From Gemmatimonadota bacterium (GTDB taxonomy: Bacteria > Gemmatimonadota > Gemmatimonadetes > Palauibacterales > Palauibacteraceae): a stretch of DNA of 64,000 nucleotides. Numbering within the stretch: position 1 is the first letter of the stretch; every line of letters starts with the position of its first letter. A program made the position numbers and the translations under genes. The notes beneath the pieces were generated by a model. That model saw only the letters and a list, made by a program, of their open reading frames with translations. It searched no databases and had not been told where the DNA came from. Shown here piece after piece: positions 4,564 through 52,866 of this stretch. The stretch is from assembly GCA_020351855.1 (NCBI GenBank), contig CP070670.1, forward strand, positions 1,664,846-1,728,845, read 5' to 3'.

Positions 4564-5465
4564 CGTGGGGCACCTGCGGGTGCGTCTTCGGCTGCGCCGG
4601 CACGGCGAATCGCCTCGGCGAGGTCCAGGGCCCGCCGGGCCGGGCCCACATCGTGCACCCTGAACAAACGCGCACCCCGCTCCAGCGCGACGACGCAGGC
4701 TCCGATCGTCGCCTCGAGCCGCTCGTGCACGGGAAGATCGAGCAGCATGCCGATGAACGACTTACGGGACGGGCCCACCATGATCGGGACGTCGAGGGAG
4801 CCGAACTTGCCGACCTCCGCCAGCAGACGCAGGCTGCCCTCGGGCGACTTGCCGAAGCCGATGCCCGGATCCACGACGAGCTGCTTCCTGGAGCAGCCGG
4901 CCGAGACCGCCGCGTCGATCGAGCGCTCGAGCGAGGCCCGCACCTCCGCGATCAGGTCGGCGTACTCCACGTCCCGCTGCATGGTGCGCGGATCGCCCCG
5001 CCGGTGCATGAGCACGAGGCCGGCCCCCGACTCGGCCGCCAGCCGCCCGATCCGGGGCTCGACCTCCAGCCCCGACACGTCGTTGATCACCGCGGCGCCC
5101 AACTCCAGCGCCCGCTCCGCAACGATCGCCTTCGTCGTATCCACGGAGAGCGGCACGGCCAGCGACCTCCGCAGGCGCTCGAGGACGGGCGCCAGACGAT
5201 CCCACTCCTCGTCGGCCGGAACGGCCGGCGCCCCCGGCCGCGTCGATTCCGCACCGATGTCGATGAGATCCGCGCCCTCGGCGGCCAGCGAGAGGGCGCG
5301 TTCCTCGGCCGCGGCCGGCTCGAGGTAGACGCCCCCATCGGAGAAGGAATCGGGCGTGACGTTCAGGACGCCGACGACGACCGGTCGCCCGAGATCGACC
5401 GTTCGGCCCCGGATGTGCCAGACGGCGGGGTCGCCAGCGGCCGGCTCCGGGGCCCAACCGGGCAT
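4560..5465 (-). CDS. folP: dihydropteroate synthase
   Basis: Pterin-binding domain (VGVLNVTPDSFSDGG...IDIGAESTRPG...VDPGIGFGK). The start was taken at MPGWAPEP (ATG at 5463-5465), because the ORF upstream of that would run into the ftsH 3' end. Confidence 0.85.
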   Translation of the reverse strand: MPGWAPEPAAGDPAVWHIRGRTVDLGRPVVVGVLNVTPDSFSDGGVYLEPAAAEERALSLAAEGADLIDIGAESTRPGAPAVPADEEWDRLAPVLERLRRSLAVPLSVDTTKAIVAERALELGAAVINDVSGLEVEPRIGRLAAESGAGLVLMHRRGDPRTMQRDVEYADLIAEVRASLERSIDAAVSAGCSRKQLVVDPGIGFGKSPEGSLRLLAEVGKFGSLDVPIMVGPSRKSFIGMLLDLPVHERLEATIGACVVALERGARLFRVHDVGPARRALDLAEAIRRAGAAEDAPAGAPR

Positions 5466-5484
5466 CGTCAGTCGCGCGCCGGGC

Positions 5485-7482
<1,998 letters not shown>

Positions 7483-7518
7483 CCGTACGATCCGATCTAT
7501 TCGAAATCCGTCACCCGG

Positions 7519-8106
7519 CTACTCGGCCAGGCTCGCTATGAACGGGAGGTGGCGAAAGTCCTCCGCATGATCCAAGCCGTACCCCACCAGGAACTCCAGC
7601 GGCGCATCGAAACCGACCCAGCGCGGCTCCAGCGCGAGCCGGCGGGCGATGTGCTTGTGAAGCAGCGCGCAGATCTCCAGGGACTTGGGCTGCCTGGCCT
7701 GCAGCGCCTCGATCATCAGGCTCAAGGTGTTCCCGCTGTCGACGATGTCCTCCACCAAGATGACGTTTCGGCCGGCGAGGGGGGCCGCGGGATCGTACAG
7801 CAGCTGCACATCGCCCGATGAGGTCGTCCCCGCGCCGTAGCTCGAGGCCACGAGAAAATCGACCTGCAGCGGACGGCCGATGTGGCGCACGAGGTCGCTG
7901 AGGAAGATGAAGGATCCCTTCAGCAGGCCCAGGACCAGCAGGTCATCCTCCCCCTCGTAACAGGAGGTGATCTCCCGGCCGATGCGCGCGACCTCCTTGG
8001 CGATCTGCTGCGGCGTGTAGACGATCCGCCGGATGGGACGACCGCCCGTTCGTCGATCGACGTCCAGGTCCGCCTCCCCGTGGCGCATGGCCGTGGTTTC
8101 CGTCAT
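7519..8106 (-). CDS. hpt: hypoxanthine phosphoribosyltransferase
   Basis: PRTase motif VILVEDIVDSGNTL. The start is the ATG at 8104-8106, which overlaps the tilS stop (ATGA). This is the classic tilS-hpt-ftsH synteny. Confidence 0.85.
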   Translation of the reverse strand: MTETTAMRHGEADLDVDRRTGGRPIRRIVYTPQQIAKEVARIGREITSCYEGEDDLLVLGLLKGSFIFLSDLVRHIGRPLQVDFLVASSYGAGTTSSGDVQLLYDPAAPLAGRNVILVEDIVDSGNTLSLMIEALQARQPKSLEICALLHKHIARRLALEPRWVGFDAPLEFLVGYGLDHAEDFRHLPFIASLAE

Positions 8107-46600: not shown

Positions 46601-47148
46601 GCCTCGAGCCGGCGGAGCGCCGTCCGGCGACGGTCCTTGTAGCGGCCAATCTCAGCGGCTTCCTCGAAGAGGGCCCTGCGCTCCTCGGCTCGATCGCTGA
46701 GAATCGCATCGATCATCCGCGCTTCAATGATCGAGTAGGCGTTGGCCCCCAGTCCCGTGTCCCGACAGAGATCCAGGATGTCCCGCAGCCGGCAGGAGGC
46801 GCCGTTCAAGCTGTAGTCACTCTCCCCGCCGCGGTACACGGTCCGGCCGATCGCCACCTCCGAGTACGGCACGGCCAGCTTGCCGTCCTCGTTTGACAGG
46901 ATCAGGGAGACCTCCGCCCGATGGATGGCCTTCCGTTGCTCCGTACCGCCGAAGATCGCCTCGTCCATGCGGCTTCCACGGATGACGGTCGGACGCTGCT
47001 CGCCGAGCACCCAGCGAATCGCGTCGGAGATGTTCGACTTCCCGCATCCGTTGGGTCCGACGACCGCCGTGATGCCCTCGTGAAAATCGAGGGCGGTGCG
47101 GTCGGCAAAGGACTTGAAGCCGTGGAGGGTGAGGGACTTGATCTTCAA
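43630..47148 (-). CDS. smc: chromosome segregation protein SMC
   Basis: N-terminal Walker A VVGPNGCGKSNISDAIRWVLGEQ, long coiled coils, a hinge, and C-terminal LSGGERALTALSLLFAI with Walker B FCVMDEVDAPLD. Confidence 0.95.
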   Translation of the reverse strand: MKIKSLTLHGFKSFADRTALDFHEGITAVVGPNGCGKSNISDAIRWVLGEQRPTVIRGSRMDEAIFGGTEQRKAIHRAEVSLILSNEDGKLAVPYSEVAIGRTVYRGGESDYSLNGASCRLRDILDLCRDTGLGANAYSIIEARMIDAILSDRAEERRALFEEAAEIGRYKDRRRTALRRLEAATADLQRLDDLIGEVQAKVRSLARQRGRADRYVRYRERLLQLEIAVAAERLADIESRIGAATGELEGLRKAAPGEEAGLHAREAELETLRLRLTEDGRNRSALAEQLARVRERLNRMESEGLVEAERASTNDARLEAIEEELAEVAGRSASLSSELERLKAESEASRSRLEETGELEAGLVAEVERLEGDKKRAVTAVEEALNRHREASRQIAELSADRAVEEQRHEERIRELERRRELLLGIEESRGAAEEELEDARAEAQRAAERYAGLEAELTRVRGELAEVRARWRGVRDRVAEAEGSLSGIKARLSSLRALLASGGGQPATVRRLLGAGRGSEGVKGVLGPLVDYLDVPAHLSTAVEAHLGPYLHALLVKDWKVVAAVQRWLEQSEDEGGLLLLPLSPQPATEAVHEGSVLNEIAVRDPAGDWAAALLGTVRAAESFAPADRAWVLRDGSGQDRLGAVRVGRPGAGGSLELRAEIDTLEGQVGEAEQELAQLRSELASANDGLAEREGEVESASGELDIARAALQEADVRREAAAARVDSLLSEERAVTGRIGELAGAVDGYDGDQGDREGALSGLREEEAAAEAAAGEAQERARRATTDWEAGRTELHELQLDLARLESEAAAKLERLRQVEVRRDEVGALRKRLEAEREERNGLAAALLRSAAEREEGMAALLVERSGNEPLLVRADQGLGQLRAEVDEEEARVREARRAEREHAETRHALELDLAEQRARRSSIRERLEAEWAKDFESLAEGVERPSEGTLDEWARDLEELRARIRKLGPVNPLAAREYEEESERLAFLEAQREDLTKARDDLQTSIRRINRAAAESFLATFDQIRENFQRTFGTLFEGGECDLWLDSEDPLDSPIEISASPGGKRTQRIHLLSGGERALTALSLLFAIYLAKPSPFCVMDEVDAPLDEANIGRFVRMLEEFKNDTQFVVITHNPRTIEAADWIYGVTMQEPGVSSIVGVEFGDLPSGQVA

Positions 47149-48593
47149 CGTGGCTCTCCTCGTCTCGTCACAAGTTCAGCGTCCACGCCAGCAGCTCGCA
47201 GAAGGTCGCGCATCGCCGAGGCGGCAGCGGCTTTCTCGTATGCGCCGGCGTAAACCTGATATACCGTATCACCCTCCGCCACCAGCGGGATCGTGTAGGT
47301 CGGGATTCGCCTGCCCGTCAAAGCCTCGCTGGCCGCCCGCGCCGCCGTCCGGTCCGCGTGCACGGAGACCAGATACGCCAGGGCGGCCGGACGCACGTCC
47401 CAGTCGCTGGCCGCCTCTTTTAGTCCGCGCCGCGTGAGCTCGCCCATGAGCTCGAACGCCCGATCGCGCGTCGGCAGCGCACCCGCGTAGATCCGTTGGT
47501 AGACCGTCCCGCGGACCGGCGTCGGGGCAACGAACACGACCAGGGATCCATCCGCCAGCCGCCTTGCTTGCGCCATGGCATCGGAGAGGGAGGCGTAGCT
47601 CGCCAAGAGAACGGAGTACCCCAGCGCCGGGCCCCCCGTGCGGTCCGCCACGGCCGTCGCCGCCCCCACTTGACCCGGCCCCGGCGCAGCGCGCGGAGCC
47701 GGCCGACCGGCCTCGGTCCGCCCCCCGGTGGGTAGGGCCTCTGCCGCCCTTCCCTCGGTCCCGCTGCGCTCCGGGTCCGTGGGAAGCTCCGTCGCCACTC
47801 CCGGCATCGGCTCGGCCTCCAGGGACGCCCGCGCAGCCACGTACCGGGCGAGAAGCCACCACCCTCCCAGCAGGCCGACGAGCGCGGCCCCGGCAAGCCC
47901 GATGCGGGAGAGCGGCAGGCGCTGCTTGATGCGATGGCGACGCCAGCGCGAAAGCGCCGGGGAATCCGCAGCCGGGAGGTCCGACGCCGGGGAATCCGCA
48001 GCCGGGAGATCCGACGCCGGGGAATCCGCAGCCGGGAGATCCGACGCCACGGACGGCCGCGTGGCGGGCTCGCCCATCTCGGCCTCCCGGACCGCCCCCG
48101 TCCCGTCGGCACGCACCTCGCGGTCCGGGGACGGTGGAGAGGCCCCGAGCTCCAGCACCGCGTCGAACCACTCGGCCGGCAAGCCCGCAAGGTCGCGCGG
48201 GACGACGAGCAGCAGCGTGCCGCTGGCGGCGCGCACCCGCTCGATGAGGGCCCGGATACCGGGCGACGGCGGGATCGCGCCGGATCCCCCTGCCGGAAGG
48301 TACAGAAACGGCCTGCCGCTCGGACGCCGCACCGCCTCGGTGAGCCCCACCCGACCTGCAAGCACCTCGCAGAGCCCTGGAGCGCCCACGGCGCCCAGGC
48401 TCTCATCGAGCCGACGTCCCGCGGAGCCCACACCCGTCACCAAGGTGCGGCCGCGACCTGCGGCCAGCTCGGTCGCTAGAGCGCTCACGACGTCTGAAAG
48501 CCCGGCGCCATCAACGGCCTGCACGGCCACAACTCGCGCCTCGGCGGCCAGCGCCAGAAGCACGCCCGATCGGGCCGAATGCTCGGTACTCAC
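47145..48593 (-). CDS. membrane protein with degenerate MinD/ParA-like (pseudo-ATPase) N-terminal domain, internal decapeptide repeat, TM segment and two C-terminal SPOR domains
   Basis: The N-terminus aligns in pattern to the MinD/ParA P-loop fold, but Walker A KGGxGKT is replaced by DGAGLSD and Walker A' D-x-D by GVG. The LYLPAGG region is retained. Three copies of SDLPAADSPA follow, then a TM helix (IGLAGAALVGLLGGWWLLA) and two SPOR-like domains (YSVLLASYASLSDAMAQARRL...; YLVSVHADRTAARAA...YQVYAGAY). The stop overlaps the smc start (ATGA). Confidence 0.7.
   Translation of the reverse strand: MSTEHSARSGVLLALAAEARVVAVQAVDGAGLSDVVSALATELAAGRGRTLVTGVGSAGRRLDESLGAVGAPGLCEVLAGRVGLTEAVRRPSGRPFLYLPAGGSGAIPPSPGIRALIERVRAASGTLLLVVPRDLAGLPAEWFDAVLELGASPPSPDREVRADGTGAVREAEMGEPATRPSVASDLPAADSPASDLPAADSPASDLPAADSPALSRWRRHRIKQRLPLSRIGLAGAALVGLLGGWWLLARYVAARASLEAEPMPGVATELPTDPERSGTEGRAAEALPTGGRTEAGRPAPRAAPGPGQVGAATAVADRTGGPALGYSVLLASYASLSDAMAQARRLADGSLVVFVAPTPVRGTVYQRIYAGALPTRDRAFELMGELTRRGLKEAASDWDVRPAALAYLVSVHADRTAARAASEALTGRRIPTYTIPLVAEGDTVYQVYAGAYEKAAAASAMRDLLRAAGVDAELVTRRGEPR
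47948..48037. repeat. perfect 3 x 30-bp tandem repeat inside the SPOR-protein CDS
   Basis: The unit ccggggaatccgcagccgggagRtccgacg occurs three times head to tail and encodes SDLPAADSPA x3 on the minus strand. Confidence 0.85.
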
Positions 48594-48617: not shown

Positions 48618-50237
48618 TTAGAATTCTCCCTCCATCCCCGCCGTCAGCTCGATCACCCAGGCGTCCAGACCACGCTCTCGTCGCAGCTGCCGAGCCGCGG
48701 CGTCGGCCCTCTCCCGGGCCGGGTACGGCCCGACGAGCGCCCGATACCACAGCTCGCCGGCGTCGTCCCGGCGTCGCTGGACCGCCGTCGGATATCCGCT
48801 ACGCGCCAGGGTGCCTACGAGCTCGATCACGCCCGACGCAGTGCGAGCGGCCAGAACGACCGCGTAGTACCCGGCGGCGGGCGCGGCCAGCATGGCGGCG
48901 AGCGAGTCCGTGCCGCCACGGCCATCCTCCGCCGGAGTCCTCGCGCTCGCAGCATCCTCGCCCGCCCCACCGGCATCCGGGGGCGCTGCCCGCCCCGGAC
49001 CCTCATCGGTCGCGTCCGCGGTCTCGTAATCCGGTGCGGCTTCCGCCGTGTCAGCCGGCCGCCGTCCTGCGCCGTCGGCTACCCGGACAGCGTCCGGCCT
49101 CCAGCGCACGGGAAGCCACCACGCATCGACGGGTCCATCGACGGACTCCAGCTGGACGGCGGTGCGGGCACCCCGGTCCACCCGCGCGAGGAACAGCGAG
49201 TCCTCCCGCACCCCCAGGATCTCTCCCGTGGGCAGTGCGAGCGGGAGGTCGGCCCGCCATTCGAAGGGCAGGCGAACGGCGGGTGCGCCGCTCAGAGACA
49301 CGAGGAAGACGCCCTCCACGGTCGCCGCCAGCAGCGCCTGGCCGAACACGCCCGGTCGCAGCTCGGAGATCTCCGCGCCGAGCCGAGCCAGCTCCCGCCG
49401 ATTGCCGCTGATCCGGTTCACCGCGTCGATCCGGCCGCCCGAGCGGGCGGCGTAGATCTCGTGGGAGGACCCGGAGAGGGCCAGCGCCGTTACCCCCCGC
49501 CGAAACTCCCAGCGATTCTCGACCTCGAGATCCGGAACGCGGACGACCACGAGCTCTTCGGCAGCGCCCGAGGGGAACACGACACTGCGCGAGAACGCGG
49601 TGAGGAGTCCGGGAGGGCGCACATCCAGTGACGCCTGCGCCACGACGTCCGAACCCTCTCCGAGCACGAGCACGACAGCCTCCCCGTCGCGCCGGCCAAG
49701 CGCCAGGGCCGCGCCATCGGGCAGCGGCCCGGCCCACTCCACCGGCACGGGCGACACATGCGTTCGTGATCCGGCGGCATCCGTTATCGTGATCTCCGTC
49801 TGCTCCCAGAAGGCTACCGCGCCGCGGAACGAGCTCCATCCAGCCTCCGGTGCGACCTCGATCCCGGCGGCCCGCGGCTGCCCCAGGTCCCAGCGATAGG
49901 CGGCGCCCCCGGGGGCCCGGAGCACGAGGGTCTGATCGCCGCTCGCCCGCGCAACTTCCACCGCCGGCAGCGGGCTCTCCCGGCGCCAGAGGCGCAGCGA
50001 CGGATCGACGGCCGCCCGCAACTCGGGCCGGCCTCCCGCCCACCCGAGCACCATCAGGCCAGCCTCAGCCATCCAGTCGCCCACGACGAGGCGCTCCTCA
50101 AGCTCGACGGAATCGCCAGTGCCGCTCCCGGAAGGCCGATCGCACGAGAGAAGCCACAGGGAAGAGGCGCTTGCCAGCAGGATCGGGATCGCCGGCCGGA
50201 GCCGCCCTCGCGACATGGCCGACCCGCGCGGCCTCAC
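48618..50237 (-). CDS. putative lipoprotein with C-terminal SPOR domain
   Basis: Signal peptide and lipobox (ILLASASSLWLLSC), a large beta-rich periplasmic region of unknown fold, an acidic linker, and a C-terminal SPOR domain (YYAVVLAARTASGVIELVGTLARSGYPTAVQRRRDDAGELWYRALVGPYPARERADAAARQLR). It overlaps the rsfS stop by 4 nt if the first ATG is used. Confidence 0.7.
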   Translation of the reverse strand: MRPRGSAMSRGRLRPAIPILLASASSLWLLSCDRPSGSGTGDSVELEERLVVGDWMAEAGLMVLGWAGGRPELRAAVDPSLRLWRRESPLPAVEVARASGDQTLVLRAPGGAAYRWDLGQPRAAGIEVAPEAGWSSFRGAVAFWEQTEITITDAAGSRTHVSPVPVEWAGPLPDGAALALGRRDGEAVVLVLGEGSDVVAQASLDVRPPGLLTAFSRSVVFPSGAAEELVVVRVPDLEVENRWEFRRGVTALALSGSSHEIYAARSGGRIDAVNRISGNRRELARLGAEISELRPGVFGQALLAATVEGVFLVSLSGAPAVRLPFEWRADLPLALPTGEILGVREDSLFLARVDRGARTAVQLESVDGPVDAWWLPVRWRPDAVRVADGAGRRPADTAEAAPDYETADATDEGPGRAAPPDAGGAGEDAASARTPAEDGRGGTDSLAAMLAAPAAGYYAVVLAARTASGVIELVGTLARSGYPTAVQRRRDDAGELWYRALVGPYPARERADAAARQLRRERGLDAWVIELTAGMEGEF

Positions 50238-52326: not shown

Positions 52327-52866
52327 CTATTCTTCGCCGACTTCCGGCTCGCTCTCGCTGCCGACCGGGGGGGGCTGCCTCACGCGAGAGCCACGGCTGC
52401 GCTCGCCATCCTCGTCTTCGTCTTCATCCTCGTCCTCGTCCTCGTCCTCATCTTCGTCCTCGTCCTCGTCCTCATCTTCGTCCTCGTCTTCGTCCTCGTC
52501 TTCATCGTCCACGGATCGGCGTCCCCGCCGCTCCGCCCGCTCATCGCCCTCCCTCCGCATGGAGGGCGGGAAAGGCAGCTCGCCTTCCGAGAGGACGATC
52601 AGGTAGCGCAGGAGGCTCTCATCAAGCTTGAGGAGTCGCTCGAAATCCGCGAGCGAGGCGGGCTTCGCCTCGAACTGCGCAACGACGTAGTACCCGTTGC
52701 GCTCCTTGTCGATCGGATAGGCGAGCTGGCGCTTGCCCCAGTGCTCGACGGCCGAGATCTGCCCGGACTCATCGGTGAGGCGGCCGTGAAAGGTCTGCAG
52801 CTTGGACTCGATCTCCTCGGCGGTGAGCGAGGAGCGGAAGATGTATACGATCTCGTACTTGTTCAT
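52327..52866 (-). CDS. rpsF: 30S ribosomal protein S6 with long acidic (Asp/Glu)n C-terminal tail
   Basis: S6 fold ([10 protein letters not shown]...[16 protein letters not shown]). The tail is (DE)n of about 40 residues, encoded by the hexanucleotide repeat at 52408-52512. Confidence 0.9.
52408..52512. repeat. (gaggac/gaagac)n hexanucleotide microsatellite encoding the S6 poly-Asp/Glu tail
   Basis: About 17 near-identical 6-nt units on the coding strand. This is not a CRISPR: there are no spacers and it is in-frame coding. Confidence 0.8.

Follow-up and report, generated by a model that had tools for sequence, protein, structure and literature searches.

Why should two genes for SPOR-domain proteins lie directly ahead of smc, the gene for the bacterial condensin? 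The question is raised by a stretch of 64,000 nucleotides (nt) of the Gemmatimonadota contig CP070670.1 (here called the window; all positions are counted within it), whose minus strand carries an uninterrupted run of genes from 52.9 to 41.6 kb. Within this run, smc is preceded by two open reading frames (ORFs), to which we refer as SPOR-1 (50237-48618) and SPOR-2 (48593-47145). An original prediction, made from the letters of the window, took the first for a lipoprotein and the second for a pseudo-ATPase, gave both a SPOR domain, and placed them with smc on a single transcript that begins in a block of ribosomal genes. The proteins proved to be much as predicted, and the tie between the SPOR genes and smc is retained across the phylum; the tie to the ribosomal genes is not. 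The explanation that we consider best, and to which we give an even chance, is that SPOR-1 and SPOR-2 are a Gemmatimonadota-specific pair of wall-anchored envelope proteins, co-produced with SMC and acting in the septal wall or in envelope constriction.

The arrangement is no accident of this genome, as a comparison of the smc neighbourhood among relatives, the check that the original prediction had proposed, makes clear. Ten window proteins were mapped onto all fetched loci, and the gene calls of further contigs were also read. All 53 related loci that were examined, which span deep branches of the Gemmatimonadota, retain the SPOR/smc pairing. The order SPOR-1, SPOR-2, smc holds in 41 of 41 species loci and also in metagenome loci beyond these, and was found wherever a locus is long enough to reveal it, save in two, L049 and L052. 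The junction between SPOR-2 and smc could be read in 44 loci: it is -4 nt in 17 and +4 to +9 nt in 23, together 40 loci, and the other four have 40-85 nt. In 25 of 43 loci the sequence allows SPOR-1 to overlap SPOR-2 by 4 nt.

The flanks of this unit vary. Adjacency of rsfS to SPOR-1, which the window has, is lost in L017, L020, L048, L049, L051, L052 and L053. An opposite-strand gene for a protein of 909 amino acids (aa) separates the two in L017, and at least in that locus SPOR-1 must be transcribed from a promoter of its own. A gene of 1,070-1,160 aa that combines Tricorn/PD40 propellers with an Omp85 barrel stands between rsfS and SPOR-1 in L020, L048, L049, L051 and L052; the same module is called as two adjacent genes in L053, and loci with this gene often also have a DegV/Dak2 gene ahead of rsfS. 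The Tricorn/PD40-Omp85 architecture of these deep-branching loci is unusual in itself (the L049 copy lies at 4640-7873), and several of them carry lolA a few genes downstream. On the other side, a gene for a metallo-beta-lactamase (MBL)-fold hydrolase follows smc in most related loci; it is absent from L049 and L052, and L053 has an S8 peptidase gene instead. DAHP (3-deoxy-D-arabino-heptulosonate 7-phosphate) synthase is missing downstream of smc in L046 and L048. What stays constant is the core SPOR-1-(SPOR-2)-smc, and attachment to rsfS and the ribosomal genes is a lineage-specific juxtaposition outside it. One locus, L037 (OZ220691.1, 9887-13018, a complete-chromosome metagenome-assembled genome, or MAG), has a single ORF of 1,043 aa that spans SPOR-1 and SPOR-2. 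A Rosetta-stone fusion was weighed as an explanation and set aside on grounds of membrane topology: in a fused protein, the N-terminal domain of SPOR-2 and its SPOR domains would each end up on the opposite face of the membrane from the one where they belong. The single ORF more probably reflects the loss of a stop codon or an indel in the assembly.

Both families were found in Gemmatimonadota only (41 species genomes and metagenome contigs). Word-seeded searches returned 27 homologues of SPOR-1 and 37 of SPOR-2, and all named ones come from Gemmatimonadota MAGs. A profile search of 1.84 billion representatives with SPOR-1 gave 231 proteins at E<=1e-10, with 59 at E<=1e-30; full-length members down to E ~1e-18 keep the lipobox, both propeller motifs and the C-terminal SPOR domain described below. 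Thirty distant members were looked up, and the named ones are all Gemmatimonadota or 'Gemmatimonadales' MAGs, with no cultured strain among them. One genome for each GTDB species was also scanned with two exact peptide patterns, an approach that under-samples divergent lineages and in which missing cultured genera are not evidence of gene absence; it identified 41 species, all of them Gemmatimonadota, with Candidatus Palauibacter from sponges and the sea among them. Palauibacterales forms an order of its own (PMC10469786). Judged by profile searches, SPOR-1 and SPOR-2 belong to no curated family other than SPOR.

What kinds of protein are these? That both genes encode SPOR domains survives the profile search: PF05036 scores 38.7 bits for SPOR-1 and 39.8 bits for SPOR-2, against a cutoff of 21, and the homologues of each also pass the cutoff. 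The single SPOR domain of SPOR-1 and both domains of SPOR-2 adopt the fold beta-alpha-beta-beta-alpha-beta in AlphaFold2 (AF2) models, with a predicted local distance difference test score (pLDDT) of 80-97. In SPOR-1, DSSP assigns strands to residues 449-457, 477-483, 489-498 and 520-524 and helices to residues 460-472 and 501-515 (532-aa numbering).

From its N- to its C-terminus, SPOR-1 consists of a signal peptide with a lipobox, a flexible tether, a beta-propeller, a disordered linker and the SPOR domain. Its identification as a lipoprotein is borne out by the lipobox L-L-S-C, which conforms to the pattern [LVI][ASTVI][GAS]C, Leu at -2 being less common. The lipobox Cys is near-invariant within [AGS]-C-[GD] in an alignment of 17 homologues of 30-55% identity, and a lipobox-like [AGS]C recurs in most full-length distant members of the family. 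Position +2 of the lipobox is Asp33 (50141-50139), where nearly all homologues have Gly. In E. coli lipoproteins, Asp at +2 is the inner-membrane retention signal, a rule that may extend to Gemmatimonadota.

Between lipobox and SPOR domain, the original prediction had seen some 400 residues with no obvious domain, and had asked whether fold prediction would reveal a beta-propeller. The region does hold such a domain, together with the disordered linker. The AF2 model of SPOR-1, built on the alignment of 17 homologues (mean pLDDT 76, predicted template modelling score 0.65), contains an all-beta domain at aa 52-371 in which DSSP finds 30 strands of at least 3 residues and two short ones. These strands probably form eight four-stranded blades, or seven, the count being read from DSSP only. 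A Foldseek search of the PDB with the propeller gave more than 1,500 propeller matches at E<=1e-3, the best of which are WD40 proteins, the archaeal YVTN protein 1l0q, cd1-NirS, AztD and BamB (E 3e-10 to 4e-9, 9-14% identity). At the level of sequence, no Pfam or NCBIfam family matched the propeller, and a sequence-profile search against the PDB returned sub-threshold propeller matches only. The motifs S-x-S-S-H-x-[IL]-Y and W-R-x-D-L-P-L-x-L-P are invariant, and a blade motif of the type 'SPDGxxLYV' is also present. The N-terminal domain of SPOR-1 is, as modelled, a propeller of an uncurated family. The linker that follows differs in length among homologues, its alignment columns being gapped and poorly conserved.

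SPOR-2 is, in the AF2 model, a bitopic membrane protein: a cytoplasmic domain resembling MinD and the bacterial tyrosine kinases (BY-kinases) is followed by a linker, one transmembrane (TM) helix and two periplasmic SPOR domains, with a second disordered stretch between the TM helix and the SPOR domains. The cluster W-R-R-H-R ahead of the TM helix is invariant and fits an N-in orientation. Foldseek matches the N-terminal domain best to Wzc, CapB, VpsO and Etk, and then to MinD (E 1.6e-5 to 1e-3 over 120-160 columns), and its sequence profile finds BceF, Wzc, MinD and FleN in the PDB (E 6e-4 to 6e-3); NCBIfam adds weak TIGR01005/EpsG matches. The domain is truncated, with ~150 aa against ~250 for MinD. 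When it is aligned with MinD, the P-loop GKGGVGKT stands opposite non-conserved residues that form no P-loop (VDGAGLSD in the window), and no string resembling Walker A (GxxGxGK[ST]) occurs in seven diverse SPOR-2 homologues, deep branches included. By these sequence criteria the domain is a pseudo-ATPase, as had been proposed, and the dead state is ancestral in the family. The linker of SPOR-2 includes a tandem repeat that encodes SDLPAADSPA three times. The repeat is missing from all aligned homologues and is therefore a recent expansion.

Do the SPOR domains have what is needed to bind glycan strands? In SPOR-glycan complexes the single highly conserved contact is a Gln of strand 1 (RlpA Q270, FtsN Q251); Gln is the favoured residue at position 8 of the SPOR profile, and FtsN Q251 is among five residues whose mutation lowers septal localisation (PMC6895207). 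Position 8 of SPOR-1 is Val460 (48860-48858), counted from aa 455 at profile position 3 (Pfam coordinates), and in the HMMER alignment with DedD the Gln of DedD falls opposite the Val next to Val460. The position-8 column is Val or Ile throughout the 17-sequence alignment. The equivalent residues of SPOR-2, read by eye from the strand pattern, are Leu (aa ~328) and Val (aa ~407). Gln is found at position 8 in five of seven deep-branching SPOR-1 homologues, and the family was therefore ancestrally canonical, the window's clade having diverged. Characterised SPOR domains all bind denuded septal glycans (PMC6895207; bioRxiv 10.1101/2022.07.01.498525). From family membership, we infer that SPOR-1 and SPOR-2 bind peptidoglycan and localise to the septum. 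The earlier description of the two as septal-peptidoglycan binders stands as to SPOR membership and fails as to the Gln contact residue. Fold and profile membership hold; the ligand specificity of the window's SPOR domains is a prediction only.

How closely are the genes joined? From rpsF to the MBL gene all genes lie on the same strand with gaps of -4 to 35 nt. Public gene calls put the start of SPOR-1 at ATG 50216 (P0001, 532 aa), which leaves a gap of 17 nt to rsfS and no overlap. The start favoured here is GTG 50237, because GGAGGA lies 3 nt upstream of it and because the resulting N-terminus, MRPRGS, is like the MRRPSG/MRRTSG of homologues; the overlap with rsfS hinges on this choice. Both 4-nt overlaps noted earlier are present, that with rsfS given the GTG start, and the gap between SPOR-1 and SPOR-2, put at 25 nt before, is read as 24 nt (48617-48594). 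No terminator-like site lies between these genes; the five found in 15 kb are all intragenic, versus 4.2 expected from shuffles. The spacing makes co-transcription of SPOR-1, SPOR-2 and smc plausible. A single transcript from rpsF to smc, as first proposed, would be consistent with the spacing and the lack of terminator-like sites in the window; in relatives the rsfS-SPOR-1 link is broken. The variable flanks weaken the claim of a general rpsF-to-smc transcript and strengthen the narrower SPOR-smc tie.

These features can be accommodated in the following way. SPOR-1 would be a lipid-anchored periplasmic propeller that serves as a protein-binding platform, and its linker of ~65 residues would join the propeller to a SPOR domain gripping glycan strands, most likely at the division site. 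SPOR-2 would be its partner in the inner membrane, with two SPOR domains in the periplasm and a catalytically dead cytoplasmic domain acting as an interaction module, not as an enzyme. We infer such a partnership, in which the propeller might contact SPOR-2 or divisome proteins. The pair may play its role in the septal wall or in envelope constriction, as with the SPOR proteins of E. coli, which act at the septum and of which DamX and DedD stimulate class A penicillin-binding proteins (PMC6895207, PMC7642682). Translational coupling of SPOR-1, SPOR-2 and smc is proposed because of the start/stop overlaps and the Shine-Dalgarno sequences inside the preceding genes; it would supply the envelope/division module and condensin in a fixed ratio.

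Some observations weigh against this proposal. The canonical Gln is replaced in all three SPOR domains of the window (Val, Leu, Val), and their glycan binding may be weaker or different. L049 and L052 are without SPOR-2, and there SPOR-1 stands 59 and 93 nt ahead of smc with no gene between; in these two lineages SPOR-2 is dispensable. Internal promoters are possible: a scan for the sigma-70 consensus, which is uninformative for this phylum, gave 0 sites versus 1.0 expected. Finally, close relatives are collinear over ~20 kb of the surrounding sequence (prs, rplY, pth, H+-PPase ... dnaX, ybaB, recR), and descent therefore explains part of the conservation.

Descent could in principle explain all of it. 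In the phylum's ancestor, ordinary wall or division genes may have happened to adjoin smc, and they may have stayed there with no functional coupling, possibly with promoters of their own. With an order of ~20 kb shared by close relatives, adjacency alone is weak evidence for anything else, and SPOR-2 has been lost in two lineages (L049 and L052) with no visible change to smc. Elsewhere among bacteria smc lies beside unrelated housekeeping genes, as in the rnc-smc-ftsY order of Bacillus subtilis. The flanks, however, have been rearranged repeatedly, and SPOR-1-(SPOR-2)-smc has never been interrupted; the spacing at 40 of the 44 SPOR-2/smc junctions is, moreover, typical of translational coupling. 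Inherited synteny is the strongest of the rival explanations, and we regard it as rather unlikely.

A role in biogenesis or tethering of the outer membrane is more doubtful still. SPOR-1 would then be a BamB-like protein with a partner of the Omp85 family, and its SPOR domain a general wall anchor, like tethers of the Pal/Lpp type, instead of a septal signal. A propeller with a lipid anchor is the architecture of BamB, which is among the fold matches (7tt2_B), and two relatives give weak sub-threshold matches to PQQ_2/BamB. The PD40/Tricorn-Omp85 gene lies directly upstream in deep lineages, overlapping SPOR-1 by 4 nt in L052, and lolA is nearby in deep-lineage loci; loss of the canonical Gln in the window's clade could mean an altered specificity. 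On the other hand, a Tricorn/Omp85 homologue was sought throughout the 64-kb window and none was found, and the Omp85 gene usually lies farther from SPOR-1 (62-210 nt) than the members of the SPOR-SPOR-smc unit lie from one another. The BamB matches stay at 13-15 bits, below the Pfam threshold of 27.6, and the septal glycans to which the characterised SPOR domains bind also speak for the septum.

It is highly improbable that the dead MinD/ParA-like domain of SPOR-2 binds SMC-ScpAB, ParB or DNA, the septal wall being gripped by its two SPOR domains: SPOR-2 does span the membrane with a domain of the MinD/ParA/BY-kinase class on the DNA side, and its gene overlaps smc by 4 nt at a junction that is tight in most loci, but the domain is truncated and without the nucleotide-binding motif needed for ParA/MinD dimerisation and for binding to DNA or membrane, its best fold matches are BY-kinases and not ParA, and in two lineages (L049 and L052) smc does without SPOR-2. 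If this link between septum and chromosome were true, SPOR-2 would form with SPOR-1 a module from the outer envelope to the nucleoid, through which constriction would be coupled to the clearance of the chromosome; a checkpoint device of this kind for division and segregation is not known to have been described in any phylum.

Table 1. Features of the smc locus in the window, in order along the minus strand.
Feature	Position (nt)	Strand	Basis or remark
rpsF	52866-52327	-	PF01250
rpsR	52315-52097	-	PF01084
DUF2232 membrane-protein gene	52081-51140	-	
rplI	51116-50667	-	
rsfS (ribosome silencing factor), adjoins SPOR-1 upstream	50647-50234	-	PF02410; TIGR00090, 98.8 bits
GGAGGA Shine-Dalgarno for SPOR-1, 3 nt ahead of GTG	50246-50241	-	
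GTGA overlap, rsfS TGA 50236-50234 / SPOR-1 GTG 50237-50235	50234-50237	-	read from sequence
SPOR-1 gene	50237-48618	-	539 aa (532 aa from ATG 50216)
SPOR-1 predicted signal peptide ending in lipobox L-L-S-C, Cys32 codon 50144-50142	50142-50237	-	sequence ...SLWLLSC32
SPOR-1 predicted beta-propeller, aa ~57-379 (~50-372 in 532-aa numbering)	49101-50069	-	AF2 pLDDT mostly >90
SPOR-1 acidic disordered linker rich in Ala/Gly/Pro, aa ~383-449 (376-442 in 532-aa numbering)	48891-49091	-	pLDDT <50
SPOR-1 C-terminal SPOR domain, aa 455-529	48651-48875	-	PF05036, 38.7 bits, E=1.3e-9, cutoff 21
SPOR-2 gene	48593-47145	-	482 aa
SPOR-2 degenerate MinD/BY-kinase-like alpha/beta domain, aa ~10-150	48144-48566	-	AF2, confidently folded
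SPOR-2 linker 30-nt tandem repeat, 3.1 copies, 98% matches	47955-48048	-	
SPOR-2 RWRRHR motif and predicted TM helix, aa ~231-249	47847-47903	-	hydrophobic core of long helix
SPOR-2 SPOR domains, aa 326-388 and 400-476	47166-47618	-	PF05036, two stretches, 39.8 bits, E=5.7e-10, cutoff 21
GAGGAG Shine-Dalgarno within SPOR-2, 7 nt ahead of smc TTG	47161-47156	-	
TTGA overlap, SPOR-2 TGA 47147-47145 / smc TTG 47148-47146	47145-47148	-	read from sequence
smc, canonical bacterial SMC	47148-43630	-	1172 aa; TIGR02168 886 bits vs cutoff 567
MBL-fold hydrolase gene, 35 nt 3' of smc	43594-42815	-	Pfam Lactamase_B_2
DAHP synthase	42699-41647	-	

The rest of the locus has features of its own (Table 1). 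In the smc product, Pfam places SMC_N at aa 3-1156 and SMC_hinge at aa 524-630. The DUF2232 gene lies between rpsR and rplI, neither ssb nor priB intervenes between rpsF and rpsR, and this order is the same in all related loci. Ribosomal protein S6 (52327-52866, minus strand) has a genome-encoded acidic C-terminal extension of ~85 aa with a long (D/E)n run, which is encoded by a hexamer/dodecamer tandem repeat at 52409-52503; rpsF of the relatives is also long (197-229 aa). Downstream of the DAHP synthase/UPF0102 region lies a small signal recognition particle (SRP) RNA (RF00169, 41099-41194, minus strand, 49.4 bits versus a gathering threshold of 40), which in syntenic loci stands ahead of dnaX-ybaB-recR. 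An Rfam scan of 41-56 kb found this RNA only, and no ribosomal-protein leader or other regulatory RNA. The MBL-fold gene has a weak, sub-threshold match to the anti-Pycsar protein Apyc1 (26.6 bits versus a cutoff of 50); PADLOC matched none of SPOR-1, SPOR-2 and the MBL gene to a defence system.

Soils, sediments and sponges harbour abundant Gemmatimonadota, whose cell biology is, to our knowledge, essentially unstudied. SPOR-1 and SPOR-2 provide two conserved candidates for the division or envelope machinery of the phylum, a propeller-SPOR lipoprotein family and a pseudo-ATPase SPOR protein. The former comprises ~230 clusters at 50% identity, and its propeller is without a Pfam family. If the linkage to smc is functional, the locus would show, in nature, wall-bound division proteins being made together with condensin, and would offer a handle on the coordination of segregation and constriction outside the model phyla. 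If it is inherited gene order only, what remains of use for annotation is a domain family not defined before, a revised start codon and SPOR domains without the canonical Gln. For specialists in division, the main draw is a pseudo-ATPase SPOR protein fixed to smc.

How do the two proteins compare with known systems? The original prediction considered a SPOR pair tied to smc unusual; our literature searches found no description of SPOR proteins in Gemmatimonadota, of a propeller-SPOR lipoprotein or of a SPOR-smc operon. For the order smc-zipA-ligA, a possible precedent, a search of the literature gave nothing pertinent, and we do not rely on it. The nearest counterpart of SPOR-1 in layout is RlpA, an outer-membrane lipoprotein, in which a lipid anchor, a functional domain, a flexible linker and a C-terminal SPOR domain likewise follow one another. 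The functional domain of RlpA, however, is a lytic transglycosylase of the double-psi beta-barrel (DPBB) type, whereas that of SPOR-1 is, as modelled, a propeller of ~320 aa, and SPOR-1 matches no DPBB/RlpA family in Pfam or NCBIfam at E<=0.1. RlpA Q270 is, moreover, Val in SPOR-1, and the gene context of SPOR-1 is smc, whereas that of rlpA in E. coli is mrdAB-rlpA.

SPOR-2 resembles DedD, DamX and FtsN in topology: its N-terminus is cytoplasmic, and a single TM helix leads to a linker in the periplasm and to SPOR at the C-terminus. Unlike them, it has two SPOR domains and, on the cytoplasmic side, a folded domain that resembles MinD and the BY-kinases; SPOR-1, in turn, differs from them as a lipoprotein that is not bitopic. 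Among PDB sequences, the SPOR domain of SPOR-1 matches DedD best (6ztg, E=0.017), and annotations of the Joint Genome Institute label some homologues 'DedD'. Identity of SPOR-1 with DedD was rejected: the equivalog NF008641 scores 14.6 bits versus a cutoff of 150, and the SPOR part alone aligns.

As a lipid-anchored periplasmic propeller, and probably a platform for protein interactions, SPOR-1 is also like BamB, TolB and propellers of the YVTN/PQQ type. It differs from BamB in lying outside the sequence family (SPOR-1 itself gives no match to BamB/PQQ_2, PF13360; two relatives score 13-15 bits versus a cutoff of 27.6), in its extra SPOR domain and in its restriction to Gemmatimonadota. The N-terminal domain of SPOR-2 shares its fold and the motif region 'GL..vL.G...l.e......l.yLPaG' with the BY-kinases (Wzc, CapB, Etk, VpsO, BceF) and with MinD/FleN. 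In contrast to these, it has ~150 aa and is without Walker A, and would hence be neither an ATPase nor a kinase; the topology is also inverted relative to Wzc, running from an N-terminal cytoplasmic domain through the TM helix to the periplasmic SPOR domains. SPOR-1 and SPOR-2 belong to a known kind, the SPOR envelope/division proteins, and combine it with new partner domains, a lineage-specific variation and not a new kind of system.

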